A DNA stretch of 64,000 bases. It comes from a virus. The stretch is taken from the IMG/VR virus record IMGVR_UViG_3300036781_000275, positions 9,324 to 73,323 of that record; one strand, written 5' to 3'. Each line of letters starts with the position of its first letter. Position 1 is the first letter of the stretch. Positions 10,014 through 55,952 of this stretch are shown here, piece by piece. A program made the position numbers and the translations under genes. The notes beneath the pieces were generated by a model. It was given only the letters and a program-made list of their open reading frames with translations, made no database searches and was not told the DNA's origin.

Positions 10014-11063
10014 TTACTCCTCTTCGTCCCCGTCCGGTTCCTCCTCCTCGTCTTCATCGTCGCTCGGCTCAACTGGCGGCTCCTCATCGATGAGCGCCGC
10101 AAGGTTGCCCGCGAAATCGTCGGGCATCTCTTTGCGCAGATCCTGCGCGACGGTCGTGTACGCATCGCTCACCAGCCCCAGCTCGGTGCGCGCCTCCTGC
10201 TCTGCGCGCAACACGCTGTTCCATGCGTCGACGTCCAGCTCTTTCATGACCTCGCGTTCCACGAGATCCGCGAGCACGGTCGGATCGAGCGCGTCCAGCT
10301 CCCACGATTCGTCGCCGTACTTGAACTGGTAATCGTTGAACCGGCTGTCGGTTTCCTTCGCCGGGTTCGGCGGCGGCTTGTACCGATCTATCTGCGGCAT
10401 GTTGAGCGCGAGCCGCCGCACCTCGACGCTGCGCGCGCCGAATAGCACGAGGCGATCACGAATGTCGCGCGTCATGTCGATCCCGCTCGGATCGTGATCG
10501 CCGAAATGCAGGATCAAAATGTCACGGCCCGGATTGATGCGCCCGACACCCTTCGGCTTGGTGCCGACGCTCACGTGCCTCAGTCGCTGCGCTGCGCCCC
10601 AGATTTCGGAATCGCTCGTGTAGCCGCGGCACGAGAAGAACGGCAACCGCCATTTGTGCGCGACGCGTTCGAACACGCCCATCAGTGCGTCTTTCTCGAA
10701 CCACACTTCGATGTACGTGGGCTGCGTCAGCCACCGATCAAAGCGGAATTGTTCGGCGACGGCCTGCACGATGTCGGCCGGCGATTCCCACTTCGACAGA
10801 TCCTGAAGGTTGCGTGTGCGATCGACAATCGCGCTCCAGTCAATCAGGCCAGCGCGCCGGCCCTTGCTGACGATGTTGCCGAGCCGGTTGTATTCGCGCG
10901 CCGTGTTCGGGATGTAATCACGGCTCACGAATTGGTAATAGAGCTGGCGCAGCGTGAGCGTGTAGCCGAGCGCTGCGTACTCGTCGATGATCTGGTTCGC
11001 CTGTACGATCACCGCGAGTGTGGCGTCCTTCATGCCGACGACTTCGTACGCAATCTTCGGCAT
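10014..11063 (-). CDS. Topoisomerase VI-A/Spo11/JetD-like wHTH-TOPRIM protein
   Basis: TLRQLYY (catalytic-Tyr wHTH), EVWFEKDAL, RGY.S, HFGDHDPSG (DxD); acidic tail. Confidence 0.75.
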   Translation of the reverse strand: MPKIAYEVVGMKDATLAVIVQANQIIDEYAALGYTLTLRQLYYQFVSRDYIPNTAREYNRLGNIVSKGRRAGLIDWSAIVDRTRNLQDLSKWESPADIVQAVAEQFRFDRWLTQPTYIEVWFEKDALMGVFERVAHKWRLPFFSCRGYTSDSEIWGAAQRLRHVSVGTKPKGVGRINPGRDILILHFGDHDPSGIDMTRDIRDRLVLFGARSVEVRRLALNMPQIDRYKPPPNPAKETDSRFNDYQFKYGDESWELDALDPTVLADLVEREVMKELDVDAWNSVLRAEQEARTELGLVSDAYTTVAQDLRKEMPDDFAGNLAALIDEEPPVEPSDDEDEEEEPDGDEEE

Positions 11064-11064
11064 G

Positions 11065-11707
11065 CTATTTCGCGTCGCCGCTCACGCAAAACTGATCCAG
11101 CCATGCGTGTACATCCGCCAAGGTGCGTTGATCCGCGTCATTCCATCCTCGCACAACGGACACCATCTCCTCTGTGCCACCAACTTCCAGCACCGCGCCG
11201 GCGAGACAGAAGCAATCGCCTTTGTCTGGCAGCACTTTCTTGTCAGCGCCCTTGATCCAATGTTCGGGGTCAAGCAACGCTTTCGCTTTTGTTGCGATTT
11301 CGCACGTGGGTTGCGCATAAGGCTTCGGCGCGGCAATGAGACCGCCACCGTGCCAGTCGCCACCGTGCCAGTCGCCACCGCGCCAGACGCCACCGCGCCA
11401 GTCGCCACCGCGCCAGACGCCACCGCGCCAGTCGCCACCGTGCCAGTCGCCACCGCGCCAGACGCCACCGCGCCAGTCGCCACCGCGCCAGACGCCACCG
11501 CGCCAGTCGCCACCGCGCCAGACGCCACCGCGCCAGTCGCCACCGTGCCAGACGCCACCGTGCCAGACGCCACCGCGCCAGACGCCACCGTGCCAGTCGC
11601 CACCGCGCCAGACAACGCGGCCTCGCGCGTCGATCTCTATGTCGGCGTTTTCGGTAATCGCGCGCACCAGCCATGCGGGCGCGTTTGAGAGTTCGGAAAT
11701 TTTCATT
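11065..11707 (-). CDS. W[RH]GG[DV] pentapeptide-repeat protein with DUF6197-like C-terminus
   Basis: Start MKISELSNAPAW; 18 pentapeptide repeats; C-terminal CFCLAGA...WND...RT..DV. Confidence 0.65.
11343..11612. repeat. 15-bp tandem repeat, 18 copies (GCCACCGYGCCAGWC)
   Basis: Directly visible; only two variable positions per unit. Confidence 0.95.
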
Positions 11708-11731
11708 GCCTTAGAGAGAAGAATCTGGTCA

Positions 11732-12085
11732 TCACAAACCGTCCGCTTTGCGCATGAGCGTTTTCGCCTGCTCGATTGTAAACGCGCCACCCATGCGCCG
11801 ATGAAACTGCTGCACTGCCGCTGCTTCCGACATATGCCTGAACAGTTTGATTTCCTCGGCGTTTGGAGCTGGCCATTGTGGCTGTACATCTGGCGCGAGC
11901 ACGCGCACGCCGCCATCGGTTCTATAGACTTCGACCACGTTGATTGCCGGCGTAATGCCGTTGTCGAATTGGCGCAGTGAGATTAGCCCGCCAGTGCCAT
12001 CGGGAAAGCTGAACTGCACGATCCGTTCGCCCGGCGCAGCACATTTCTGCGCGCCGGGCGCTGGTTCCACCTGTGCCAGCTTCAC
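11732..12085 (-). CDS. hypothetical protein (GTG start overlapping upstream stop)
   Basis: VKLAQVEPAPG... part of the 11732-12358 ORF; GTGA overlap. Confidence 0.5.
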   Translation of the reverse strand: MKLAQVEPAPGAQKCAAPGERIVQFSFPDGTGGLISLRQFDNGITPAINVVEVYRTDGGVRVLAPDVQPQWPAPNAEEIKLFRHMSEAAAVQQFHRRMGGAFTIEQAKTLMRKADGL

Positions 12086-37014: not shown

Positions 37015-38178
37015 TTAGCCGTCGATCCCCACTACCTCGCCGAAGGGGGCCGCCTCGATGGTTCCGGTGACTGCCCAGAGCACTGGGAGCGCCGGCGGCT
37101 CACTGGGGAAGCTCCCGGCAAGGTCCGTCAGATACACCGCGCAGACTGGCGGCTCGTCCATCGTGTCGACCGCCTCCAGTGCCGGCGCGAAGTCGGTGCC
37201 GCCGCCGCCCATGGGGCGCAGCTCGACCGGCTCGCCCTGCTCGAAGGTCTCCGCCGCGTTCACCGCCGCGTCCGCGTACACCACGTGAATGCGCGCGGGC
37301 TGTAACTCGTCGGCAATCGCGTTGATTTCGGCCGCGAACTTCGCGAGCGTCACGTCGTCAATCGAGCCCGACGTATCCACGATCACCGCGATCGCGCCGA
37401 GCTGTTCCGAGCGCAGCGACGGCAGATACAGCCGGCGCGCCAGATAGCGAGTGTTCGGGCGCGTCCACGCGTAGTCCGCCTGTGCGGCTTGCTGCACGAA
37501 TCGGCGGAGCGCTGATCGCCAGTCGACTCGCGGCTTCACGGCTTGCTTTACGAATCGGCCGAGCCCCGCCGGCAGTGCACCGCGCGCCCGTGCTGCCGCC
37601 GCGGCTTGCTGCACCGCTTCGCGCCACTCCGGTTCTGTGTTGCTGTCTTCGGTGGCATCGGCTGGCGCGTCGCGCACTTCACCCGGCTGTTCCTGCTCGG
37701 TGCCGTGCGGCTCGCTCTGCTCTGCGTCCGGTTGCGGCGCGCCGTTCTCGTCTGGCGTTCCCTTGCCGTCCTGCCCGTCTGAGCGCGGCAACCGATCGTA
37801 AATCCACTCCGACGCTTTGCCCGTGAACTGCGCCTCGCAGAGCACGCCTTTCGGCAGCTTGAACCCCGACTCGCGGAGCATCGTGTTGATCGCGTGGTCG
37901 CACGCAATGTTCCATTTTTTCTGTTCGCGCCCGTCTCTGCGCCACGGGTGTCCGCATGCGCAGTGCATCACTTCGTGCGCGATGATGCCGACGATCACGT
38001 TGTGTGATTGCGCATCGATAAACTCGGCGTTGTAGCCGAGTGTGCGGCCGTCGACCCACGCCGTTTTGCAGCTCGGATCCTCCACGAGCTTCAGGCGAAG
38101 CGCCAGCGCGCCGAAAAACGGTTGATCGATCACGAGCGCCGCGCGCGCCACCATCATTTTCTTTTCCGTCTGGTTCAT
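37015..38178 (-). CDS. DUF2201-type metallopeptidase plus vWA protein
   Basis: HEVMH zincin motif, WNIACDHAIN, MIDAS DTSGS, GGGGTDF, YLTD. Confidence 0.88.
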   Translation of the reverse strand: MNQTEKKMMVARAALVIDQPFFGALALRLKLVEDPSCKTAWVDGRTLGYNAEFIDAQSHNVIVGIIAHEVMHCACGHPWRRDGREQKKWNIACDHAINTMLRESGFKLPKGVLCEAQFTGKASEWIYDRLPRSDGQDGKGTPDENGAPQPDAEQSEPHGTEQEQPGEVRDAPADATEDSNTEPEWREAVQQAAAAARARGALPAGLGRFVKQAVKPRVDWRSALRRFVQQAAQADYAWTRPNTRYLARRLYLPSLRSEQLGAIAVIVDTSGSIDDVTLAKFAAEINAIADELQPARIHVVYADAAVNAAETFEQGEPVELRPMGGGGTDFAPALEAVDTMDEPPVCAVYLTDLAGSFPSEPPALPVLWAVTGTIEAAPFGEVVGIDG

Positions 38179-38224
38179 TCGCGTTGACTCCACGTTGTGA
38201 GTGTCTCGCCTGCCTGATCCCAGC

Positions 38225-38238
38225 CTAACGCCTGTTAG
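38225..38238. promoter_or_regulatory. palindromic operator CTAACGCCTGTTAG
   Basis: Within TTGCCA-16-TAGGCT promoter, after hairpin at ~38252-38280. Confidence 0.8.
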
Positions 38239-38292
38239 GTGCGATGGCAAGGGGAGAAGCGGCCGGCGGCCGTCTCTCCCGATGCCGGTGGG

Positions 38293-39216
38293 CTATTCCT
38301 GCTCGGCGGGCGGCTCATAGAAGCCACTCATTGCGTCGAGAATCGACTGGGTGCGCGCCGCCGCGTCTGCCCGGAGTGTCTCCGCGGCTGACCCCGTTTC
38401 ACGCAGCAGCTTGGGACTGAGCGTCATGATCTCCCGCGCGACTCGCGTGCGGATCACTTCGAGGTTCGCGTCATCCACCACGTTCAGCCGGGCCACGAGG
38501 TCCGTCGTGTCCGTGGTTTGCTTCACGATCGCGTCGCGAATCGCGGCGCGCTTCGCCTGACCGGTTGGGCTGTCCTCGTTGATCGCGGGATCCGCGACGA
38601 GTCGGTGAATTCTGGCCACCGCCTCATAGACTCGCGACCATGTGTCCGTCATGGCATCCTTCACGGCGCTCTCCACACGGTCCGTGATGGACTTCTCCAG
38701 CTCGGCGATTTGATCCGCCGGCAACGCGAGCCGAAAATCGCCCTGCGCTGGGAGCGGCGCGAAGTGGAGCGCGAACTCGAACTTGCCGCGCACTTCGCTC
38801 TCGGCGGGATAGTCCGCCTCGTTGTACAGGCCGTTCAGGCGCACTTTCGCCTGTTCCTTCAGCGCCGTGTAGTCGCTGACGAATTGATCAACTGCGGCCT
38901 CGAAGGCTACACGGGCCTTGCGGAGCTGCTCCGTGTACTGGAAATAGTTGGTCGACGGCAGCAGCCTCCAGCCCTTGTCAGACCACGGCAGCGCGTTGAC
39001 GTCGTGGAGTGCGCGCGCGGCCGTCGCGGCGGAAATCACCTTGTTGAGACTGGTATCGGGGCCGCCGAGCAGATGTTTGTTGTACCGGCCCGCGTCACGC
39101 CCCGCGGCGTGCTCAGTGTTCACCTTGTCGGTGACCTTCTTGTCGAAGCGTCGCGCCGTCCATGTCGAGACATGGAGCTTCACGGTCAGCGCGCGGGATT
39201 GAATGTCGATGCTCAT
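38293..39216 (-). CDS. DUF3150-like protein
   Basis: S.WTAR..D, LPWSD.G.RLLP, L.GLYN..DYP....V..KF; usual partner of AAA/vWA. Confidence 0.65.
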   Translation of the reverse strand: MSIDIQSRALTVKLHVSTWTARRFDKKVTDKVNTEHAAGRDAGRYNKHLLGGPDTSLNKVISAATAARALHDVNALPWSDKGWRLLPSTNYFQYTEQLRKARVAFEAAVDQFVSDYTALKEQAKVRLNGLYNEADYPAESEVRGKFEFALHFAPLPAQGDFRLALPADQIAELEKSITDRVESAVKDAMTDTWSRVYEAVARIHRLVADPAINEDSPTGQAKRAAIRDAIVKQTTDTTDLVARLNVVDDANLEVIRTRVAREIMTLSPKLLRETGSAAETLRADAAARTQSILDAMSGFYEPPAEQE

Positions 39217-40247
39217 TACTTGGTTTCTCCAGAGAGAAGTTGACCCAGCTCGCCAGAGCTGAGTTTGATGAAATCGGCTGTCTGTGTGATCGCGGGGTTC
39301 CGCCGGCTTGCATCGCGCGCCAGCAGCGCCGCGAACTCGCCGTGTTGCGCATCGATCAAGCGTTGCGCGTACAGCGCGACTCGACCGAAGTTGGTGGGCG
39401 TCGCCTTGGTCGCGAGCGCCGTGGTGATCGCATAGAGCGCCGCGGGCTTTTCAGGAATCGGCGCGACGTCGGGATTGAGCAGCACCATGTCGATGCTCGG
39501 CAACTCTTTGAAAAGTTGCAGGAAGCCGCGCAGCTCGACCGCCGCGCCATCGCCAACCGCTCCAGCAAGCGCCGCCTGCTCCACGGCCGCCGGCAAATTC
39601 ATTCCGAGCACGCGGGCCGCGTTCGACCATGTGCGCGGCGTCGGACTGTTCGTGAGATCAGCGCTCGCCTTGAACTGGCTCAGCAGCTCCGGGCGGAAGC
39701 GTAGGAAGGCAATCAGCTCGGCCGGAATGTGCGACTGCGTGAATGCCCACTGGCACCACTCATCAAGATCGGCCTCCAGCTCGACGATCGCCGTGAAGCG
39801 CGACTTGACCGGTTCGAGAATGCCGCTGACGCCGGCCTTGTCGGTGCGACGATTCGTTGCCGCGATGAATGTCACACAGTCGGGCAATTTGTGCCCGTTG
39901 ACTCGGCGCGCAAGCAGGAGCTGCATGAAACTGGCCTGCACCGCCGGCGTTGCCTGTCCGAGATCATCGAGAAACCACACGGTCGGTGCGGTCGCGTTGA
40001 TCGCGCGCGCCAATTCGCCGAACGGGAGAAAGTGTGCGGACTGCTCGTCTTTGCCGACCCACGGCAAGCCCTTGACGTCGGTGGGATCCGATACGGCGGG
40101 ATGGCTCAGGATCAGCTCGGCACCGACCGCCGTGGCGGCCTTGGCCACGATGTCAGATTTGCCGATGCCCGGCGCGCCCGTGATGAGGACCGGCTGTCGT
40201 GCGGCGATCGCACTGCCCAGCAGGGTAGAAAGTTCCGATGGTTTCAT
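39216..40247 (-). CDS. MoxR-like AAA+ ATPase
   Basis: GAPGIGKS, FLDDLGQA, AATNR, SRF, PTPRTW. Confidence 0.88.
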   Translation of the reverse strand: MKPSELSTLLGSAIAARQPVLITGAPGIGKSDIVAKAATAVGAELILSHPAVSDPTDVKGLPWVGKDEQSAHFLPFGELARAINATAPTVWFLDDLGQATPAVQASFMQLLLARRVNGHKLPDCVTFIAATNRRTDKAGVSGILEPVKSRFTAIVELEADLDEWCQWAFTQSHIPAELIAFLRFRPELLSQFKASADLTNSPTPRTWSNAARVLGMNLPAAVEQAALAGAVGDGAAVELRGFLQLFKELPSIDMVLLNPDVAPIPEKPAALYAITTALATKATPTNFGRVALYAQRLIDAQHGEFAALLARDASRRNPAITQTADFIKLSSGELGQLLSGETK

Positions 40248-40882: not shown

Positions 40883-41356
40883 TTAGTGCTGTTCGTCGTT
40901 GTTGATCACGACCACTGTGTCCGTCTCGCGGCTCACGATGTCGAAGCTCGTTGCGATGTCGCGAGATTTTTCGGTCAGAATCTGCGCCGGCACCGTCCGT
41001 GCGCGCTGCGCATTGCGTACCATCGCCGTGTTCAGCGAGCAAACCACGTAGCATAGCTCGGTCGTGAAGCCGGCCGCGCGCGCATCGCGAATGCGCCGCG
41101 TCATGCGCTCGGCGTTCGTGCCAGTGCCGTCGATGATCCAGTTACCGGCCTTGCCCGCCACCGCCGCCGCGAACTGCTGCTCGGCGATTTCCATCGAGTA
41201 GTTGTGCAGGGGAGCCGGGTTTTTCGGATCGTAATCCGGGTGTGCCGCTTTGATCGCGTCGGGATCGATCACGGTGAATCCTTCGTAGCGCGCCCGTCCA
41301 ACTGTGCTCTTGCCAGCGGCCGGAAGCCCCATGAGAAAGATCATCGTTGCCGTCAT
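40883..41356 (-). CDS. P-loop kinase (AAA_33/zeta-toxin-like)
   Basis: GLPAAGKST, IDPD, IIDGT, RN.QR.R.VP. Confidence 0.8.
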   Translation of the reverse strand: MTATMIFLMGLPAAGKSTVGRARYEGFTVIDPDAIKAAHPDYDPKNPAPLHNYSMEIAEQQFAAAVAGKAGNWIIDGTGTNAERMTRRIRDARAAGFTTELCYVVCSLNTAMVRNAQRARTVPAQILTEKSRDIATSFDIVSRETDTVVVINNDEQH

Positions 41357-41386
41357 GTCGTTGTCTCCGCGTTGGAAGATCAGTGA

Positions 41387-41467
41387 GCCCTGCCCGATGA
41401 GAGAAAGCTAACACCTGTTAGGTCCGTGTCAAGCCCTCACGTAAAACATTGATTCTGGCACAGTTAG
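41387..41467 (-). repeat. 81-bp promoter module copy C (palindrome 41408-41421)
   Basis: Near-identical to copy A. Confidence 0.9.
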
Positions 41468-41919
41468 CGAGTCTTGCGCCGGAACTGGGTGGGGCGGCCG
41501 GGTCGTTTCGTCGGTTCCTTGCGGTATCCCTTGCTCGCCCATCGCGCGACGAGCTGCCGGCAATGATCAAGGCTGTTCGATATTCTCCCGCCCAACATGA
41601 CCGCATGCGTGGCGTGCAGGTCATCGAACGTGCCACAGATCGCGAGCACGCCCGCGTCGAGCCGCGCGACGAGAAACTCGTGCTGCGCGCGCGTCAACTG
41701 TCCCTTGGCGGCCTTCGCTTCCCACCACAGCGCGTGACCGTACTTGTCGTAATAGCGATCGCTCACGCCTTTCGTCATGCCAATCACGTGCATCGGGAGC
41801 GAGAACTCAACGCGCGAGAACCCGGCACGCAACATGTAGTCGTCGCCGAGCTGCTCCTCGTCGGTCTCGCTGCGCACGCGTGGTTTCGCGAAGTCGGGGA
41901 GCGGTGGCATGTCGCTCAT
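41464..41919 (-). CDS. VRR-NUC-like nuclease
   Basis: GVSD...WWEAK...G.LT..Q..F. Confidence 0.65.
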   Translation of the reverse strand: MSDMPPLPDFAKPRVRSETDEEQLGDDYMLRAGFSRVEFSLPMHVIGMTKGVSDRYYDKYGHALWWEAKAAKGQLTRAQHEFLVARLDAGVLAICGTFDDLHATHAVMLGGRISNSLDHCRQLVARWASKGYRKEPTKRPGRPTQFRRKTR

Positions 41920-42455
41920 TTCAGGCATACGGTCGCTCCCTTTCGCCATGGGGCGCGTTCTCTGAACCGAGCCAGCTCGGTCTCGCTGACAGCCCACCCG
42001 TCGTCGTTCGCAGCCATGACTTCTACCTGCACCTTCACCTCATCGCGTAGCCGATCTAACTGCATCTTCATGCGATAGTCAGTCTTAAATCGCGACGTAA
42101 CTCGCTCATCGAGCGCTTTGATCGCCGCCGTCATGGCCGGTTTCACGCCTGTTCCCATTAGCTCGGCGAAACGCACAGGATCGCGTGACGTCATGCCTGC
42201 GAATGCGTACGCCGCATAGTCGCATCGCGGCATGTCCCGTGCAAGAACGCTGAACCTGACTTCGCGCCACTGATCGAGCGTGACGGAATCGCGCAGCGGC
42301 GTGAAACCCGGCACGAGCAGCCGCCGTGGCGCGGCGCGCTCCAGCGCTTCGAGCAAGCTTGGCACTACCAGCAGTCCAGCGCCGACCGCGGCCGTGATCT
42401 TCGCCGACGTCAGCAGGAATCTGCGCCGGCTCTGCACGAGATCAAATTCTCTCAT
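41916..42455 (-). CDS. protein with twin-arginine-like signal
   Basis: SRRRFLL followed by hydrophobic stretch. Confidence 0.5.
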   Translation of the reverse strand: MREFDLVQSRRRFLLTSAKITAAVGAGLLVVPSLLEALERAAPRRLLVPGFTPLRDSVTLDQWREVRFSVLARDMPRCDYAAYAFAGMTSRDPVRFAELMGTGVKPAMTAAIKALDERVTSRFKTDYRMKMQLDRLRDEVKVQVEVMAANDDGWAVSETELARFRERAPWRKGATVCLK

Positions 42456-42476
42456 CGTGTTCCCTCGGTGTGAAGG

Positions 42477-42549
42477 TATGCCGTGAGGGACTCGAACCCT
42501 CGACCTTCCGATTAAAAGTCGAATGCTCTACCTGTTGAGCTACCGGCGC
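42477..42549 (-). tRNA. tRNA-Lys(UUU) with imperfect acceptor stem
   Basis: GCGCCGG TA GCTC..GAGC A TTCGA CTTTTAA TCGGA ..GAGGG TTCGAGT CCCTC ACGGCAT A; two acceptor mismatches, no encoded CCA. Confidence 0.8.
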
Positions 42550-42557
42550 TGACGTGC

Positions 42558-42845
42558 TCAAATGCCACGGATCGAGCGGAGGACTCGCCGATCTTTCCGT
42601 TCGGCGTCAAACAGGTCCACTTCTCGCTGCACATTGAGCCAGAACTGAACTGACGTGTTCAGCGCCTTCGATAGGCGTAGCGCCACCGCCGCCGTGACCT
42701 GTGCGCGGCCTCGCACGATGTTGCGAACACGATGAGCTGGAAACTTCATGCGGGCCGCTAAGCCTTTCTGCGTTAGATCAGGATGTTCGCGAATGTAATT
42801 GCCGAGCACTTCGCCCGGCGTTGGCGGCCGTACCGGTCTTCTCAT
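42558..42845 (-). CDS. higA: HigA-family antitoxin (orphan)
   Basis: PTPGEVL..., LTQ..LA, I..G...VT...ALRL.KAL.TS.QFWLN.Q...DL. Confidence 0.85.
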   Translation of the reverse strand: MRRPVRPPTPGEVLGNYIREHPDLTQKGLAARMKFPAHRVRNIVRGRAQVTAAVALRLSKALNTSVQFWLNVQREVDLFDAERKDRRVLRSIRGI

Positions 42846-42870
42846 GTCGCGCTCCACGGAGTGTGTTCTG

Positions 42871-43341
42871 TCATTCGCCGCGCACGTCGAGCGGCTTGCC
42901 GTCCCGCATGTACCGGAAGAATCTGACACGGACCATCACATCATCACCGAGCCCCGGCCGATAATTCCCCTCATGCAAAAAGTCGTCCGCTACCGCAACC
43001 CACCCTGCGCGATCTCGCCGATTCTCCAGCAACACACTCTCGATATACGCGGCCGTCTCCGTGCTCGGCTGCCGCGTCCCACCAGCGTCAACCGTGAATT
43101 GCACTCGTGATTTGCGAATCACGAGATCGCGTTCTTCGAGTTCACGCGTCGCGCCCAGCAGCGCTAAGTGCTCGACATCGCACGTCAGCAACTGCACGCT
43201 GCGCGTCATGATGATCTCCGCGAGCTGCGACGCCAGCATCGTAAACTGAATGAAATCAGCGCGGCTCTGTTCGTCCTGCACGCTGAATACGATGCTGCCG
43301 CCGGCGGTCGCGTGAATGGATACGTTCGTGAGAAGTCTCAT
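42871..43341 (-). CDS. hypothetical protein (near-leaderless)
   Basis: ATG 8 nt after -10-like TAGGTT overlapping degenerate operator 43353-43366. Confidence 0.5.
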   Translation of the reverse strand: MRLLTNVSIHATAGGSIVFSVQDEQSRADFIQFTMLASQLAEIIMTRSVQLLTCDVEHLALLGATRELEERDLVIRKSRVQFTVDAGGTRQPSTETAAYIESVLLENRRDRAGWVAVADDFLHEGNYRPGLGDDVMVRVRFFRYMRDGKPLDVRGE

Positions 43342-43446
43342 GGCACGCAAACCTAACACATGTGAGGACAGGCACGGAAGGCTTCGAGGATCTCCACATT
43401 CCCACGCGGTTGTTCTGGTAGTGCCAGTTAGTCGACACACCGGAAC

Positions 43447-43650
43447 CAGTAACTGTAATAGTAGCGTGGATAAGCGTGGATAACTCTGTAACTGATTGCG
43501 GTTGCTAACGTTGACGCTGATTTACTTCTGTGGAAATCGTGTGCATAACGTGTCGACAAGTCCGGTTGTCCACTCACCGTGAGGCGCGCGCCGCGGGCGA
43601 GGTGGAGAACGGGAGCGGATCCACAAGTAATCCACCGAGTTGTCAACAGT
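43447..43650. other. oriC-like replication origin: DnaA-trios plus cluster of DnaA boxes
   Basis: CAG TAA CTG TAA TAG TAG directly followed by CGTGGATAA x2; TGTGCATAA, TGTGGAAAT, TTGTCCACT and further degenerate boxes; AT-richer intergenic region. Confidence 0.7.
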
Positions 43651-43658
43651 CGTGCGGG

Positions 43659-44126
43659 TCAATACGGCCAGCATTCAACGCGGCGCGGCACACTGGCCGC
43701 TTCCTCCGCGCTCGATGCTACGCGGATCGGCCCCATAGGCACGTGAAACCTGACGGGCTCGCGCTGGCCAGTCGTGATGTCGCGCACGAGCACGCAGACC
43801 ACGCGGCGCGCCAACCACTCGTGGTCCTTCGGGTCATAGATCTTCTCTCCGAATAGCACGAACGGCCGCCGCTCTTCGTGGTACAGCTTCCTGAGAGCGC
43901 TCTCCGCCACGCTGCGCACCATGTGATAAATCGCGTCTTCGTCTGCATTCACATTCGCGAGGAAATCAACCGTGAACGTGCATGGCAGTTCGCGCGGAGA
44001 TCGATCGACCACGTTCCCGCTGAGCTGGATCCAGTACCGTACGGAGAGCACGTTGTCGATCAATTCGATGCGCCGCCCCAGTTTGCCGACGATGCTATGC
44101 TCGCCCGGATACGTACCGACGCTCAC
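43659..44126 (-). CDS. hypothetical protein
   Basis: HE...F.LFGEKIYDP motif. Confidence 0.5.
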   Translation of the reverse strand: MSVGTYPGEHSIVGKLGRRIELIDNVLSVRYWIQLSGNVVDRSPRELPCTFTVDFLANVNADEDAIYHMVRSVAESALRKLYHEERRPFVLFGEKIYDPKDHEWLARRVVCVLVRDITTGQREPVRFHVPMGPIRVASSAEEAASVPRRVECWPY

Positions 44127-44458
44127 CCGATGGCACCGGTTCCGAAAACCCGGTGCTGTGCGCCCAGATTGCCCGTGGAGAGCCGATCGCGCCCTGACCG
44201 GTAGAGGAGTCCCATCTTGACCAGTTCGGCCCGCCGCGAGCGAATGCCGCTCGCCGTCTGTGCGACTAGCGCCACCCCGGTCTCCCGGTGTTTCAGATAG
44301 AGCGAGATGGCTTGCTCGTCCGTGAGCGGCGCTTTCGCGTCGACGAACACGTACAGCACGTCGCGATGCGATTGCAGCAGCTTGAGGCCGCGATACGGGT
44401 CGAGCTGGAGCGGGAGCTGCGCCGGGTCATCCGGCGCAGCAAGTTTCGCGGATCCCAC
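44123..44458 (-). CDS. winged-helix DNA-binding protein
   Basis: LTDEQ...SGIRSRRAELVKMGL...SG.......G. Confidence 0.6.
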   Translation of the reverse strand: MGSAKLAAPDDPAQLPLQLDPYRGLKLLQSHRDVLYVFVDAKAPLTDEQAISLYLKHRETGVALVAQTASGIRSRRAELVKMGLLYRSGRDRLSTGNLGAQHRVFGTGAIG

Positions 44459-44461
44459 GGC

Positions 44462-45400
44462 TCAGCGCGGACGTGTCACGTTGTAATACTGCGACAGCCC
44501 CTGCACGTGGTACGGCGCGATGATCCGCGCGAGTGCCCGCGTCCCGTCGACGTCGCCGAAGTTGTACGTGATGATGTCCTCGTGCTTGCCGGCCAGATAG
44601 GCCGCGTATACCTCGCTCCCGTGCATGCCCGCCTTACCGGGCAACCCGAACGCGGCAAGCCACTCGTCGAGTTTCCCGGTCGCCCGCATGTCCCAATTCG
44701 AGAGCGCCATGCGCACGTCGAAGTGCGGACAGTGCCGGTAGCGTTGAAACAACGTGCCAAGCTCGAACGGGTTCGGCAACGCCAGCGGCACGGTTAACTC
44801 GTCTGGCAATACGATGCGCTCACCCACCGGGATCTTCGCGACTAGCGCATCGCGCGTGCGCTTGATCTGCCCGCGCAGAATGTGCGAGCGCACCACGCCG
44901 AACGTGAGGTCGAATGCGCCACTGTACGTGACCACGAGCGCTGCGCCGCTGATCTGGCGCAGCATCGAGTCAACGACGCCCGTTTCCTCCTGCTCATCCT
45001 TCGCGTAGAAACACACGCGATCGCGCGCGGTCTCGTCGCGCCAAAAGGTTTCCGGGGTATCCGTGAGCACCGCACAGCTCAGAATGCGGCCCGTGCGCGC
45101 CGACAAGCCCAGTTCGCCCACGCGCTCGGCGCGCTCGACTTCGAGCTTCATCATTCGCTCAACCTGCTTCTCGGCCCACGTGGTTTTATCCGTCTCGCGC
45201 CACGCATCGATCGTGTCTTGCTTCTTGTAGCTCTTCGGTGCCGGCCGGTCCTCTTCGCTGTAGGTCTCCGCGTTGATGACGGCTGACCGCTTCTGAATCT
45301 CCTCGTCGATGCGCGCCACCTCCGCGTTGATCGGGATCGTCTCGATGTCCACGGTACAGATCGCGCCGCCGTGGTACTCGTACTGATTGTCGTACGCCAT
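44462..45400 (-). CDS. 3'-5' exonuclease (DEDD, PolB-related)
   Basis: VDIETIP, TYSGAFD, HFD, Y..GDV. Confidence 0.8.
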   Translation of the reverse strand: MAYDNQYEYHGGAICTVDIETIPINAEVARIDEEIQKRSAVINAETYSEEDRPAPKSYKKQDTIDAWRETDKTTWAEKQVERMMKLEVERAERVGELGLSARTGRILSCAVLTDTPETFWRDETARDRVCFYAKDEQEETGVVDSMLRQISGAALVVTYSGAFDLTFGVVRSHILRGQIKRTRDALVAKIPVGERIVLPDELTVPLALPNPFELGTLFQRYRHCPHFDVRMALSNWDMRATGKLDEWLAAFGLPGKAGMHGSEVYAAYLAGKHEDIITYNFGDVDGTRALARIIAPYHVQGLSQYYNVTRPR

Positions 45401-45477: not shown

Positions 45478-46461
45478 TCAGGGATCGTCTTCCGCAAACG
45501 TGGGTGCCAATTCCAGATCGACCTGCTCGGTCTCTAGCGCACCAATAGCGCCCACGTTTTTCACGGCCTGTCGATAGTACGACGGTTTCAGTTCCGCGCC
45601 AACCGCGCGTCGGCCAGCGCTCACTGCGCTATAAACTTCCGAGCCAACGCCCATAAACGGCGTGAGCACCGTCTCGTTTGGATTGGACCAAAGCACAAGG
45701 CACCGATCTATCACGTCGAGCTGCAACGGATGCACGTGCTTCTCGTCTTCGGCATCACGCGCAGCGCGATATGGTAGTACGCGGCCGAGGCGAATGTCAT
45801 CCCAAAACGCTGACGCATATTGTCGCCAGATCCAATGCGAGTAGCGGTTCTCGATTTGGTTGCCGGTCCAGCCGCGATACCGTAGTAACTCAGCCGGCAT
45901 CACGCGTTCTCCCGCGTACTCCATAAGTCCCGTGGGATGCGCAATCGGAATCGTGTTCTGTCCAGAGCGCCTGAACACAAGAAGATAATCGGCCGACGCC
46001 ACCGTGCACCGCGACGAATCTTCCACGATAGACTTATGCGCAAGCGCTTTCGTCATGGTGCGATTGCGCACGGCGAGCGGTTCCTTCCAGATGTGGTAGC
46101 GCGCGACGTAGTGAAAGCCGATCTTCTCGTGGAGGCGAATGATGTCACCGGGAAAATCGGTCAGCGAATCGAGTCCAGTGTTGCCGGTTGGAACGTCCAT
46201 GCAATGCACGGCCGTCATGCGCCCCGGCAGGGTGAGGCGATGGATCTCCCTGACCACAAACTCGTAGTGGGCGAAAAACTCCTCGCGGTTGGCGCAGTTC
46301 GATAGATCGCGGTCGCTGGATGAGTAATGGTAGAGCCCAGCGAACGGCGGAGAATAAATAGACAGATGGATGCTGGAGTCTGGGAGATTCTGCATGACCT
46401 CCATACAGTCGCCAGAATAGAGCGCGTACCTATCGGTGATTACCTGTTCGGCAATAGCCAT
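45478..46461 (-). CDS. DNA amino-methyltransferase (N4-C/N6-A, beta class)
   Basis: GDC, YSPPF, KHVHPLQ, LTPFMGVGS. Confidence 0.9.
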   Translation of the reverse strand: MAIAEQVITDRYALYSGDCMEVMQNLPDSSIHLSIYSPPFAGLYHYSSSDRDLSNCANREEFFAHYEFVVREIHRLTLPGRMTAVHCMDVPTGNTGLDSLTDFPGDIIRLHEKIGFHYVARYHIWKEPLAVRNRTMTKALAHKSIVEDSSRCTVASADYLLVFRRSGQNTIPIAHPTGLMEYAGERVMPAELLRYRGWTGNQIENRYSHWIWRQYASAFWDDIRLGRVLPYRAARDAEDEKHVHPLQLDVIDRCLVLWSNPNETVLTPFMGVGSEVYSAVSAGRRAVGAELKPSYYRQAVKNVGAIGALETEQVDLELAPTFAEDDP

Positions 46462-47819
46462 GATGGTATTTGTGTTGATTCGCTAAATGTGGATTGGCGC
46501 TCGAGCGCCATCTCGTGATTCATATGCTGAACCAACGAGGAGAACATTTGATCGGCGGCCTGTGATTTCCGCTGGAGATTCTGCTTGATCCCTTGCCCGC
46601 CAGCCGTGGTCACAATGTCAACGGTCACCGGCCGGTTCTGCCCGAAGCGCAATGAGCGGCGCACCGCTTGATAGTATGCCTCGAACGAATGCGATGGAAA
46701 AAACGTCATGTGCGCGCAATGCTGCCAGTTTAGGCCCCACGCGCCGATCTTGGGTTTCGTAATAAGCACGCGGATCTGACCGCGCGCAAATCGTAGAAAG
46801 GCGTCCTCTTTCTCGTCGTCAGAATTGGCCCCGCTGATCTCTACAGCGTCGGGGATTAACTGCCGAAGTTGCTTGCCCTCGTCGTTCAGGTGGCACCAGA
46901 CAACGGCGGGCTCGCCCGTATTGTTTACGAGCGATGCCGCACGCTCACAGCGTTCCGCGAGCGTGCGACGTGCTTCTTCGCGTTCTTCCCAGAGTCCATG
47001 CGCTGGGAGATCGAACAGCATGCCTTCGCGCGTATTTCTAGCATCCACGACGTGCTCTTGCTCGATCAATGGCGGTAGCACAAACCGCATGTCGCTAAAC
47101 CCGAGATCGGATGGCCGTCGAATCGCCCGTGCCCACGAGCACACCCACCGCCAAAAATGCTGTTCGGCGTGACCCTTGAATCGCCATTTCGCCGCACCGC
47201 CGTATTGCCGGCCGGTTGCGGAATTGTTCAGATCGTTCTTGAAAAACCGATTCAGCATGTCCATATACCCAAGACACCCGAGCGCTTCGCTCGTCGTCCC
47301 CAGCTCTATGTAGTCGTTCGGGGCGGCAGTCGCCGTGCAGAGTAACCGGTATTGCATTTTCTTCATGAACGCCGTCACGGCCTGTCGTCGCGCGCCGTCA
47401 AATGATTTGATCGCGCTCGATTCATCACAGATCACACCGACATAATCAGCCGGATTGAAATGGTGTAGCCGTTCATAGTTCGTGACTGTGATACCGGCAT
47501 GGCGGGTGCCGTCGATGGACTTGCGCACTTCGATGCCGAACTTGGCCCCCTCCTCAACGGTTTGCGCCGAGACCGCCAGTGGAGTGAGAATCAACACACG
47601 GCCGTTTGTATGCCTGACCACGTTGTCAGCCCATGCCAATTGCATCGGCGTTTTCCCGAGCCCGCAATCCGCGAAGATCGCACCACGTCCCTTGCGGGTA
47701 ATCCATTCGACGAGTGCCGCCTGAAAATCGAACAGGAACCCGTGTGCTGAGGTCGCCGCGAATCCATCCATCGACCCAATCTGGGCTTTCGCATCGAGAA
47801 ACTTCTCGTAGTCCGTCAT
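46440..47819 (-). CDS. SNF2-like superfamily II helicase
   Basis: ADCGLGKT, DESS, TATAAPN, GLNWQ, QAVRR..RFGQ. Confidence 0.88.
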   Translation of the reverse strand: MTDYEKFLDAKAQIGSMDGFAATSAHGFLFDFQAALVEWITRKGRGAIFADCGLGKTPMQLAWADNVVRHTNGRVLILTPLAVSAQTVEEGAKFGIEVRKSIDGTRHAGITVTNYERLHHFNPADYVGVICDESSAIKSFDGARRQAVTAFMKKMQYRLLCTATAAPNDYIELGTTSEALGCLGYMDMLNRFFKNDLNNSATGRQYGGAAKWRFKGHAEQHFWRWVCSWARAIRRPSDLGFSDMRFVLPPLIEQEHVVDARNTREGMLFDLPAHGLWEEREEARRTLAERCERAASLVNNTGEPAVVWCHLNDEGKQLRQLIPDAVEISGANSDDEKEDAFLRFARGQIRVLITKPKIGAWGLNWQHCAHMTFFPSHSFEAYYQAVRRSLRFGQNRPVTVDIVTTAGGQGIKQNLQRKSQAADQMFSSLVQHMNHEMALERQSTFSESTQIPSWLLPNR

Positions 47820-48604
47820 CCGCGAAACCGTCCGCACTCCGCCATCATATGCGGCTCCTCGATCGGGCATTCGAGGTGCGCGTGATGACATGTCATGTCG
47901 GGATACGCGATCGAAAACGTCACGGTCTCATGGCTCGGATAGTGCGGCTCGTGGCGGCAGTTGTACGGCGCACGCCGCTCGGTTTTGCCTTCCTCCAACC
48001 ACACGCCGTGCATCAGCTCGTACAGCACTTCTTCATCGGCGCTGAGTGGCCACGTTGGTACTATCTCATCCTCGGACCGGTCGCTCATCTCGCGCGAATG
48101 CTCGGCGCAAACAGTTCGTCATGCGATTCGATCTCGCAGAAATAGTCCACCCCGATCCGCCGACGCGCCGGCCGCAAACACTGCGTGCTATGCGGCGCTG
48201 AATGGTGCTGGCAATACCGGCCGGGAATGATCGGCGGGAGCACGCGCGGCGCATACTCGCCGCGCCGGCGTGACGTGATGTAATCGCCCACTGATTCGTA
48301 TCCGTGCCAGAACATCACGGATCTCCACGCGTCGCAGCGTCAACGATTTGGCGCTCCGTGATCCCCATGCGGCCAAGCCCAGCCGCCAAACCATGCCGCG
48401 CCAGCTTCATCAGCCACTGACGCTGCGTCTCCGACGTCTCGTTCCATTCCTCATCGCTCAGCTCGAACGGCGTCGTCGAGAACGCGCTGCCATGCGGCTC
48501 CTGCTCGGCCATCGCGGCCGCAATATGATCGGGAAGGCACGACGCGCGCATCGCGCGCGCCGCGGCCTCAACCGCGACAACTGGTAAGCGGACGGTGCCC
48601 ATGG

Positions 48605-49118: not shown

Positions 49119-50633
49119 CTACGCGCAGACGCCGACCTCGCTCTGCATTTTGCGTTTCATCGCGATGATCGCGTCAGCCCGTGCGCCCGGAAACATCTCA
49201 CGAATCTTCTCCGGTGCCAAGGTCTCGGCCGCGCGGAGATTTGTGGCGGTATCGATGCGCGCTCTTTCGAACGCGGCTTCGTCTTCGTCCTGTGCGTCGA
49301 GCTGTTCCGGCGTGCGATCGCGCAGCAAGTCGCCGAGCGGTGGCTCGCTGGGCAACGGCACCGGTGTCTCCGTGGTCGTGGCGAGATGCACCACGCAGAA
49401 CGGATCCTCAACGCCGTCCTTGCACGTGCATTCCTGCGAGAGCGCGGCGGGCGTTGGTTCGCCGCGCGACAGGTGATCCGCGATTTGCGCGGCGCTCGCC
49501 GAGCCCAACGGTGGAAGCGGCGCGCGGAGCTGCGGAGCCTTGGCGTCTGGCGCTGGCGTCGCGCCGGCCATCGACTCAGCGCGCAGTCCTGCCGCCGCCC
49601 TGAACAGGCCAGTCGGCTCTAGCCCAGCTACCGGGTCTCCGTCCAGTGTCACGACGTCGCCGCCGAGCGATTCGGCGAGCGCCGCGTCGGCCGCCGCGTT
49701 GTTGCGGTCCTCCAGCTCCGCGGAGAGATCCGCAAACACCTGCGCGATGCGCTCGTTGTCGGGCTGTTTCGCCGCGGCACCTTGAGCGCGCGCGTACCCG
49801 TCCTTCAGCACGTCGAGTGGCAGTTCGGGCAGCGGCTTGCCCGCGTGCTCTTCGAGCCCCTTCATCTTCACGAACCGCGGCCCCTCATATTTCCGCGCCA
49901 CGACCTTCTCCTCGGCTTTCGCCGACGACAACCATCGGCGAATGTCGCCAGCCACGTCCGGGTCTTTGAGATCCCACAGCGTGTCCGCGTCCGTCCCGAA
50001 CAAGCCCGTGTTGTCTTTCGTGCAATGCGCCGAGTGCGATGGCATCACGTCGAAGACCAGCGCGAATTCATATTCCGTGCCCTCGCGCACCGTGGGGTTC
50101 ACGCCGAGCTTGATGGGCTTCTTGCCGCCGTTGTGGTCGACGAGCTGATACTCCTGCTTCGAGCGCGACGTCGCGATCACGTGCACGGGCGCTTCCAGAA
50201 TGTGCCGGATCAGATCGTCCCATTCGCGGCCGAACATCTTCCAATTCGCGAAGCCATTCGAGCCGGGGTTCGCCTTGTCGTACTTCTCCTTGCGGTCGAG
50301 CAAGTCCTGCCACGCGTGATGCAGCGAATCGATCACGACCACTTTGAATCCGGCCGCGACGGCCGCATCGAGCGCGGCTTTGTACGCGGCCGGCGTGACC
50401 GAACCGATGTCGCTGAGCGAGAGATGCTTGAACGGAAACTCGTCCGCGTAGTACAGCATGCGGTCGTTCTCGCTGTCGATGGCCGCGATCTCGCCCACGT
50501 CGAGCCCGCGCGCCAAGTAGAGCGCGCCTTTGCTTTTGCCGGATCCGCTCGGCCCGTTGATCATGGCTTTGAGCTTGACCTTGGCTCGTTCGGCGGTGCG
50601 AAAGACGAACGCCGTGTCTGGTTTGGCTGTCAT
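49119..50633 (-). CDS. AAA_24/Sak4-like recombinase ATPase
   Basis: GPSGSGKS, IDSE, VIDSL.H.W, H.I.T.RSK.EY, EYEF. Confidence 0.8.
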   Translation of the reverse strand: MTAKPDTAFVFRTAERAKVKLKAMINGPSGSGKSKGALYLARGLDVGEIAAIDSENDRMLYYADEFPFKHLSLSDIGSVTPAAYKAALDAAVAAGFKVVVIDSLHHAWQDLLDRKEKYDKANPGSNGFANWKMFGREWDDLIRHILEAPVHVIATSRSKQEYQLVDHNGGKKPIKLGVNPTVREGTEYEFALVFDVMPSHSAHCTKDNTGLFGTDADTLWDLKDPDVAGDIRRWLSSAKAEEKVVARKYEGPRFVKMKGLEEHAGKPLPELPLDVLKDGYARAQGAAAKQPDNERIAQVFADLSAELEDRNNAAADAALAESLGGDVVTLDGDPVAGLEPTGLFRAAAGLRAESMAGATPAPDAKAPQLRAPLPPLGSASAAQIADHLSRGEPTPAALSQECTCKDGVEDPFCVVHLATTTETPVPLPSEPPLGDLLRDRTPEQLDAQDEDEAAFERARIDTATNLRAAETLAPEKIREMFPGARADAIIAMKRKMQSEVGVCA

Positions 50634-50774
50634 GCGATGGTTCTCCCTTGCGTCCACGTGATGAGCGTCCTACGTTGCTCGGTGTTGCACGCCTCCGGGG
50701 CGTGTAGTGAATGGCCTGTGTAATACCCTTGCCTTCGGCGGCTCGCACGTCATCTCGTGCGGGCCGCTGTTGCA

Positions 50775-53081: not shown

Positions 53082-53154
53082 GAGCAGGGACCGGACTCGA
53101 ACCGGCAACCTCCGAGTTATGAGCCCGGTGCGCTACCAATTGCGCTACCCTGCG
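53082..53154 (-). tRNA. tRNA-Met(CAU), initiator-like
   Basis: CGCAGGG..GCGC..GCGC A CCGGG CTCATAA CTCGG..GCCGG TTCGAGT CCGGT CCCTGCT; C1:U72 mismatch. Confidence 0.88.
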
Positions 53155-55640: not shown

Positions 55641-55660
55641 CGCTCGCCCTCGAAAGAAAA

Positions 55661-55952
55661 GTGGAGCCGCGGGGAATCGAACCCCGGTCCAAAAGACCTA
55701 CTCATCACCAACTCTACAAGCATAGGCCGTTGATCGTCAGACGGCCGGCTGTTCATGCGGGGAGCGGCCTTACGGTCGCACCGTCCACCAGTTACGCAGC
55801 CATCTGGATCGGCGTAACGCGATTTCGTGCACTTCGGAACGCACACAGCGACACTTCGTTGTCTTTGGCTGTTATGGTTTGGCCCTGTTGGATCCGGGCC
55901 GCGATCGCTTGCATCGGTGCATTTCAATCTTCTGTCGAAGCCAGTCGGCCCC
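55661..55952 (-). ncRNA. ssrA: tmRNA
   Basis: 5' GGGGCCGAC..GGCTTCGAC; 3' GGACCGGGGTTCGATTCCCCGCGGCTCCAC; G3:U pair; tag ORF 55869-55792 AKDNEVSLCAFRSARNRVTPIQMAA-stop after ATAACA. Confidence 0.92.

Follow-up and report, generated by a model that had tools for sequence, protein, structure and literature searches.

A DnaA-box cluster with adjoining DnaA-trios in a soil phage genome is organized like a bacterial chromosome origin

In a 64,000-nucleotide stretch of viral DNA (the window, comprising bases 9324-73323 of the 73,323-bp IMG/VR record IMGVR_UViG_3300036781_000275 and numbered here from its own first letter), we have examined an intergenic region at 43342-43658 that is organized like the replication origin of a bacterial chromosome (oriC). 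The region contains 11 sites resembling the boxes bound by the bacterial initiator DnaA, among them a co-oriented tandem pair that abuts a run of DnaA-trios and two arrays that face in opposite directions. This cluster is the only one of its kind in the genome, its trios lie in duplex of exceptionally low stability, and recognizable initiation genes are absent. These features suggest an oriC-type phage origin fired by host DnaA, an interpretation to which we give an even chance, and from them we infer that DnaA would bind the region, unwind it and allow it to act as an origin. The original prediction made from this sequence had likewise proposed an oriC-like origin, in a phage that either replicates as a mini-chromosome fired by host DnaA or titrates DnaA; the anatomical side of that proposal is upheld by the side and strand of the trios, the polarity and spacing of the arrays and the low duplex stability, while its functional side is carried forward here as a proposal.

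Scanning the complete record with the DnaA-box consensus TTATCCACA returned no exact match, three one-mismatch sites and 91 sites at the two-mismatch level. All three one-mismatch sites and 11 of the 91 two-mismatch sites fall within a cluster of about 260 bp (43390-43648), and the densest 300-bp window outside it holds at most three sites; the box scan that had been suggested as a check of uniqueness thus finds no comparable box density elsewhere in the genome. The trio run at 43447-43464, the tandem boxes and seven further boxes of the original prediction were all recovered at their predicted positions, and our scan added two-mismatch sites at 43390 and 43601 (Table 1). The region is truly intergenic, as it shows a coding signal in third-position GC content (GC3) in no frame, and the open reading frame (ORF) ORF156 starts at its ATG and not at an upstream GTG. 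The earlier description of the stretch as AT-richer also holds, since the lowest-GC 100-bp window (42%) of this 63% GC genome lies within the region. A chance build-up of box-like 9-mers in an AT-richer spacer is vanishingly improbable. Two-mismatch sites are indeed about as common genome-wide as composition predicts (91, with about 76-92 expected), but shuffling the region 2000 times produced a mean of 0.67 sites and a maximum of 4, against the 11 observed, which refutes accumulation by chance; 30 Markov-1 genomes likewise had at most 4 sites per 300-bp window, and the spacing of the phage sites is regular. Outside the cluster there are no one-mismatch boxes where 4.4 would be expected (about 4-6 from composition), and none of 60 simulated genomes was free of them, a hint that stray strong boxes may be avoided or selected against. 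The sequence GTGGATAA occurs twice in the genome, both times in the cluster, and the 10-bp tandem box is the longest repeat unit in the region.

The basal unwinding system (BUS) of oriC, as defined in Bacillus subtilis, consists of tandem DnaA boxes and DnaA-trios (PMC8287927, PMC6669920). The rule given for it combines a box with at most two mismatches, a spacer of 0-16 bp and at least three NAN trios (PMC8287927), with up to four mismatches allowed in a second, co-oriented tandem box. In the phage the tandem boxes are identical, have one mismatch each and are 1 bp apart, and the box-proximal trios TAA TAG TAG agree with the trio consensus 5'-TA(A/G)-3' given in PMC5742627, with a spacer of 0 to the proximal box and 10 to the distal one. 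The locus thus resembles the BUS in having co-oriented boxes within the mismatch limits and trios on the correct strand and side, in the least stable DNA. The hexamer TAGTAG occurs only eight times on both strands of the genome, and one of these occurrences adjoins the strongest box pair. No 15-bp duplex in the genome is less stable than the trio sequence TAACTGTAATAGTAG (43450-43464), and the trios also mark the start of the 80-bp window of lowest stability and of the 100-bp window of lowest GC content; for lengths of 20, 30 and 50 bp the site is near the top of the ranking without heading it.

The orientation of the trios was compared with that in bacterial genomes, which were searched for TAGTAG, N0-16 and then a box read either as TGTGGATAA or flipped, with 120 listed matches in each case and a match taken to be in a cluster when at least three further one-mismatch boxes lay within 400 bp. 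Among the matches listed, 26 of 120 for 5'-TAGTAG-N0-16-TGTGGATAA were in box clusters compared with 4 of 120 for the flipped box (Fisher p 2e-5). Trios located 5' of the boxes on the TGTGGATAA-reading strand are the natural orientation in bacteria, and the phage trios and tandem pair have this same orientation. The clustered bacterial matches take forms such as TAGTAGTAG-GGGC-TGTGGATAn-TGTGGATAA and TAGTAGTAG-GGCC-TGTGGATAC-TGTGGATAA. On the minus strand of the phage, five consecutive NAN triplets (43408-43422) lie 10 bp 5' of the box at 43390 and would face the first module back-to-back; a second, opposite-strand trio module at this place was rejected, being within chance expectation for 91 box-like sites.

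The remaining boxes invite comparison with Escherichia coli oriC, which is described as opposed left and right halves of low-affinity boxes 2-4 bp apart (PMC5742627). In the phage the boxes also form two opposed arrays, spaced 10-12 bp, with neighboring boxes 1-3 bp apart (2-3 bp inside the left and right arrays), and when oriented as TGTGGATAA all 11 sites, read by eye, keep G, T and A at positions 2, 3 and 6. Scanned in the same way, E. coli K-12 oriC has R1 as a TGTGGATAA-type box by the unwinding element and R4 as a TTATCCACA-type box at the far end; the phage shares this polarity, with TGTGGATAA-type boxes adjoining the unwinding side and TTATCCACA-type boxes at the far end. The gap that follows the proximal boxes is also nearly the same, at 45 bp in the phage and 46 bp between R1 and R5M. 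The phage region differs from E. coli oriC in lacking an IHF consensus, 13-mer AT-rich repeats and a perfect R-type box, and it contains two GATC sites. No CtrA consensus was found in the region, and an Rfam search of 43200-43800 returned no match. The palindrome CACATGTG at 43353, earlier taken for a degenerate regulon operator, occurs twice in the window, which is the level expected by chance.

Six-frame profile searches of the complete genome detected no Bac_DnaA, Bac_DnaA_C (domain IV), DnaB_C or IstB/DnaC, no Toprim_2, Prim-Pol, DNA_pol_A, DNA_pol_B or DNA_pol3_alpha, and no Phage_rep_O or Rep3_N. This extends to the whole genome the earlier observation that no initiator, polymerase or primase could be recognized in the window, and scans of about 50 ORFs against PHROGs, Pfam and NCBIfam were also unable to identify an initiator. 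What the original prediction had missed is a replication and recombination module directly upstream of the cluster, comprising an SF2 helicase, a Sak4-like AAA_24 ATPase and a PolB-exonuclease-like protein. Since a chromosome-origin-like stretch is found in a genome with no recognizable initiator, polymerase or primase, the phage probably starts replication with host DnaA. In the scheme that we propose, the genome would enter the cell and circularize, and host DnaA would occupy the three best boxes (43465, 43475 and 43540). ATP-DnaA would then fill the weaker boxes of the opposed arrays (43529-43559 and 43617-43648) so that one oligomer forms on the left and another on the right, as in E. coli oriC, and the oligomer anchored at the tandem pair would extend onto TAA TAG TAG and open the DNA. 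Loading of host helicase, primase and Pol III would follow, the host enzymes being assumed because the phage encodes none, and the phage SF2 helicase, Sak4-like ATPase and exonuclease may serve later recombination-dependent replication.

In phages it is usually an initiator encoded by the phage itself that defines the origin. If this one is instead fired by host DnaA, the basal unwinding system would be portable outside chromosomes, down to its single-strand DnaA-trio element, and mechanistic studies would gain a natural minimal origin that is compact, at about 260 bp. Phage replication would also be linked to the host DnaA-ATP cycle, with amplified copies soaking up DnaA as well.

An unlikely but credible alternative is that the box array has a role other than that of an origin, acting as a sink for DnaA, as a site that changes its nucleotide state in the manner of datA or DARS, or as a tether to membrane-bound DnaA, a role proposed for the injection-stop region of T5. 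Chromosomal precedents exist in datA and DARS, clusters of boxes through which DnaA is affected although neither is an origin (PMC5742627), and the phage cluster, likewise non-coding, could have DnaA itself as its target instead of starting replication. However, an IHF site between the boxes is required at datA, and a defined three-box core with fixed spacing characterizes DARS; neither pattern is evident in the phage, and neither element has the trios that the phage cluster possesses. Phage precedents exist as well: T5-like phages carry about eight ordered DnaA boxes in the injection-stop region, argued not to be an origin, with boxes in pairs 3 bp apart in inverted repeats of the terminal repeat and about half of them consensus (bioRxiv 10.1101/866236). 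Our searches also brought to light a case in E. coli phage P483 (Berlinvirus, T7-like), where an unannotated non-coding stretch of about 130 bp (L494 2418-2543, NC_028822.1 ~37256-37381), with the early genes to one side and the terminase side of the record to the other, carries eight co-oriented boxes, of which five are perfect TTATCCACA; no trios were seen in the inspected P483 stretch. These loci share with ours an ordered box cluster in the non-coding DNA of a tailed phage, but their arrays lie near genome ends, whereas the cluster described here is mid-genome, has opposed arrays and trios, and belongs to a phage in which replisome genes were not found. The P483 boxes are co-oriented and include perfect ones, T5 has about half consensus boxes, and neither has opposed arrays; the boxes of our phage are spaced 1-3 bp apart in phased arrays. 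The cluster is also about 28 kb from terS and terL, and thus not near the likely packaging end or the end likely to enter the cell first. As a single copy with no perfect box it would be a weak sink until the genome had been amplified, and its graded imperfect boxes, phased opposed arrays and trios at the stability minimum suit unwinding better than mere binding.

A transcriptional role is improbable in our estimation, although the setting would permit one: the genes on either side of the region are co-oriented, transcription of the genome runs almost wholly from one strand, and a weak -35/-10 pair overlapping the tandem boxes can be discerned by eye on the minus strand. The boxes would then overlap a promoter serving ORF156 and the genes downstream of it, or form a roadblock behind the replication module, so that expression tracks host DnaA-ATP. 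A consensus scan of 42800-44200 on both strands, however, found no sigma-70-type promoter or intrinsic terminator, and such a switch leaves the trios and the stability minimum unexplained. DnaA-regulated promoters usually have one or two boxes, and 11 phased boxes are present here. It is distinctly improbable, too, that the sites are iterons for a phage protein that happen to resemble DnaA boxes, with ORF111 or an orphan ORF as the true initiator or regulator. ORF111 is confidently a winged-helix protein with many metagenomic homologues, and ORF155, ORF156 and many further ORFs have no assigned function, so candidates are available. Against this, the DnaA-box core is kept in every site, the orientation, spacing and trio geometry are as in bacterial origins, no DnaA domain IV is encoded, and the structural matches of ORF111 are generic. 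Classical iterons are 17-22-bp direct repeats in one orientation, which these sites are not. No other iteron-like cluster stands out in the genome. Mobile replicons that recruit host DnaA through boxes, as we propose for the phage, are familiar from P1 oriR, RK2 oriV and the pSC101 origin, where DnaA boxes are auxiliary to the replicon's own Rep protein and the origin is centered on iterons; the phage differs from these in that searches found no Rep3_N, Phage_rep_O or iteron set.

Several observations weigh against an origin fired by host DnaA. The minimal trio rule is satisfied by chance at 10 of the 91 box-like sites of the genome and is for that reason weak alone, and the phage has only three contiguous NAN trios, the published minimum, with two more beyond one non-conforming triplet; the rare TAGTAG word beside the strongest box pair and the low stability of the trio duplex do not share this weakness. 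Unlike the BUS of bacteria, the locus is not beside dnaA, and the GC spacer of 3-4 bp seen in bacterial examples is missing, with TAG directly abutting CGTGGATAA, as had been noticed in the original prediction. The DNA beyond the trios lacks a strongly AT-rich element (GC content is 47-50% in the 40-bp windows at 43420-43440), the IHF consensus WATCARNNNNTTR has no match in the region, including the spacer before the left array, and a perfect consensus box is absent from the record; the consensus used in our scan may moreover not match the preference of the DnaA of the host. Because the GC spacer and the IHF site are lacking, we refer to the element as BUS-like and oriC-like in its probable mode of action and not as a proven member of either type. 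Cumulative GC skew, which had been put forward as a check, is monotonic with no inflection, although we judge it uninformative since nearly all genes lie on the minus strand. By its classification P483 should have replication proteins of its own, and T5 presumably owns its replisome likewise; box arrays are thus found in replisome-owning phages, and an array alone is no proof of an origin. About half of the ORFs have no recognizable function and could hide a novel initiator. No relative turned up in any collection searched that could lend conservation as evidence: blastn of 42800-44200 against the phage collection gave no match, and the stretch is present in a single sequencing run, from a soil metagenome that is its probable source.

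Other viral records were searched for the same arrangement. The trio pattern has at least 118 matches in IMG/VR, and among the matches listed 11 of 118 were in box clusters, compared with 5 of 117 for the flipped box, an orientation enrichment that is not significant (p 0.19). Seven IMG/VR loci (L304, L323, L326, L337, L352, L287 and L263) nevertheless combine an AT-rich stretch and trios with a GC spacer and tandem boxes, an opposed array often being present as well, and dnaA was found in none of the five trio-module records checked. One of them, L323, is a complete 35-kb record with direct terminal repeats; its module follows, at a distance of about 500 bp, a DnaB-like gene similar to those of Microbacterium phages, and an endolysin-like gene is nearby. 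Virion genes were confirmed in one trio-module record and a weak capsid match was found in a second, the others being viral per the IMG/VR classification. Microbacterium phage Dropshot, with a DnaB similar to the one in a trio-bearing record, itself encodes a RepA-like initiator, and its locus shows a single one-mismatch box-like site, inside the RepA-like gene, and no cluster. An Ori-Finder-predicted origin with DnaA boxes has been reported for a Pseudomonas phage encoding both a polymerase and a primase of its own, and we found no description of DnaA-trios on a phage in the literature, judged mostly at the level of search results.

Since canonical trio modules occur without dnaA in other IMG/VR records, there may be a wider, undescribed class. 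It is quite possible, if somewhat short of an even chance, that this phage belongs to an unrecognized class of tailed phages with a complete chromosome-type origin (trios, tandem boxes and opposed arrays), which would leave initiation wholly to host DnaA; in the present phage the host would supply helicase, priming and synthesis as well. Selection to keep DnaA focused on one site would then account for the scarcity of strong boxes elsewhere in the genome, and members of the class would be coupled to the host cell-cycle control of initiation, with which they could compete. The arrangement also suggests a simple sequence signature that would predict origins and host-DnaA dependence in uncultured phages, and the canonical modules in other IMG/VR records make this signature testable at scale.

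Table 1. Features of the DnaA-box region and its surroundings (window coordinates; box sequences as given)
Feature	Coordinates	Strand	Remarks
Intergenic region with entire box cluster	43342-43658		317 bp, between ORF155 (stop 43659) and ORF156 (ATG 43341)
Outlying two-mismatch box	43390-43398	-	ATCTCCACA on + strand; near ORF156 start
Trio run CAG TAA CTG TAA TAG TAG	43447-43464	+	Read from sequence
Tandem co-oriented boxes CGTGGATAA-G-CGTGGATAA	43465-43473, 43475-43483	+	One mismatch each; abut trios
Spacer	43484-43528		45 bp, AT-richer; between tandem boxes and left array
Left array	43529-43559	+	TGTGGAAAT 43529, TGTGCATAA 43540, TGTCGACAA 43551; 11-bp spacing
Single flipped box	43566-43574	-	TTGTCCACT on + strand
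GC-rich block	43570-43600		About 78% GC, overlapping palindromes; between left and right arrays
Single two-mismatch box	43601-43609	+	GGTGGAGAA
Right array	43617-43648	-	GGATCCACA 43617, TAATCCACC 43628, TTGTCAACA 43640 on + strand; 11-12-bp spacing
tRNA-Lys (ttt)	42475-42549	-	About 800 bp downstream of box cluster
ORF156	42871-43341	-	Orphan; first gene after cluster
ORF155	43659-44126	-	Orphan; last gene before cluster
ORF111	44123-44458	-	Small winged-helix DNA-binding protein; 38 homologues, many metagenomic
PolB-exonuclease-like 3'-5' exonuclease	44462-45400	-	PF10108 E 5.6e-15; phrog_403
N6/N4 DNA methyltransferase	45478-46461	-	PF01555; phrog_67
SF2 DNA helicase	46440-47891	-	phrog_62 E 4e-60; Helicase_C
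AAA_24 / Sak4-like ATPase	49119-50657	-	PF13479; phrog_1366, phrog_124; C-terminal part with no assigned function
tRNA-Met (cat)	53082-53154	-	
Transfer-messenger RNA (tmRNA)	55659-55952	-	Rfam RF00023, 108 bits, full length

On the coding strand the genes preceding the cluster are ordered as Sak4-like ATPase, SF2 helicase, methyltransferase and exonuclease, followed by ORF111, ORF155 and the cluster itself, and downstream of it come ORF156, an Xre-type helix-turn-helix (HTH) protein, tRNA-Lys and a zeta-toxin-like kinase. Searches of Pfam, PHROGs and NCBIfam assigned neither ORF155 nor ORF156 to a family, and the Atlas models of both are poor. The AlphaFold2 (AF2) model of ORF111 (pLDDT 85) has three helices and a beta hairpin, with PDB matches to generic winged-helix proteins only. 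ORF111 may be an accessory factor, or may compete for the boxes as a rival binder. No PDB sequence match was found for the AAA_24 protein or for a 460-residue ORF.

Relatives of this phage are distant. Its portal is at most 29% identical to those of cultured phages, and the exonuclease has one homologue, at 29% identity, among 5.8 billion proteins. Neither ORF155, ORF156 nor the exonuclease had a match in IMG/VR, and P0006, the closest homologue of ORF111, is in neither viral nor metagenome contigs. The 19-mer spanning the tandem boxes has no exact match in IMG/VR; it does match seven bacterial and six metagenome contigs, none sharing flanking DNA or any protein with this phage, and there is consequently no sign of recent capture from a sampled oriC. 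In the bacterial or metagenome contigs L253, L255, L257, L259 and L260, three to five head-to-tail copies of the 10-bp unit GCGTGGATAA are present; this is the unit of the phage tandem pair, and these contigs are otherwise dissimilar to the phage. The helicase relatives L001-L006 have only the helicase-methyltransferase pair (45478-47891) in common with the phage, at 53-79% amino acid identity, with no box cluster, and their contigs are binned to very different phyla. As only this pair is shared, it looks like a mobile two-gene cassette. The SF2 helicase is 63% identical to one of Synechococcus phage S-H1.

The terminal 127 bases are the same at both ends of the record, indicating that the assembly is circular, and its completeness is 100% by CheckV, with an IMG/VR class of direct terminal repeats. 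Judging from its gene content the virus is a tailed phage, and we describe it as a lytic-type soil phage; a search of the genome for a tyrosine integrase and ParB found neither. The packaging genes (terS, an HNH endonuclease and terL) are at 12.4-15.1 kb, a portal gene was also found, and tail proteins and an endolysin are at 57-64 kb. The only large tandem repeat of the genome adjoins the packaging genes, and consists of a 15-bp unit, CGCCACCGCGCCAGT, repeated 17.9 times at 92% identity (11343-11611) inside the ORF region 11065-11916; it is probably a 5-residue coding repeat. Two minus-strand genes in the same part of the genome have PHROG matches of possible significance for its DNA: the protein at 15178-16110 matches a beta-glucosyl-HMC alpha-glucosyltransferase (E 5e-16), and that at 10014-11063, beside the packaging genes, matches a "DNA topoisomerase" (E 2e-105). 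These glucosyltransferase- and topoisomerase-like matches may point to DNA hypermodification. The genome contains 707 GATC sites. Also on the minus strand are a MoxR-type AAA ATPase with a DUF2201 metallopeptidase/VWA partner (37015-40247) and, within 40883-42929, the zeta-toxin-like kinase (PF06414) near the Xre-type HTH protein, itself a match to a "plasmid antitoxin" PHROG. The tag peptide of the tmRNA, as given by ARAGORN, is unusual in ending with QMAA and may help in identifying the host.

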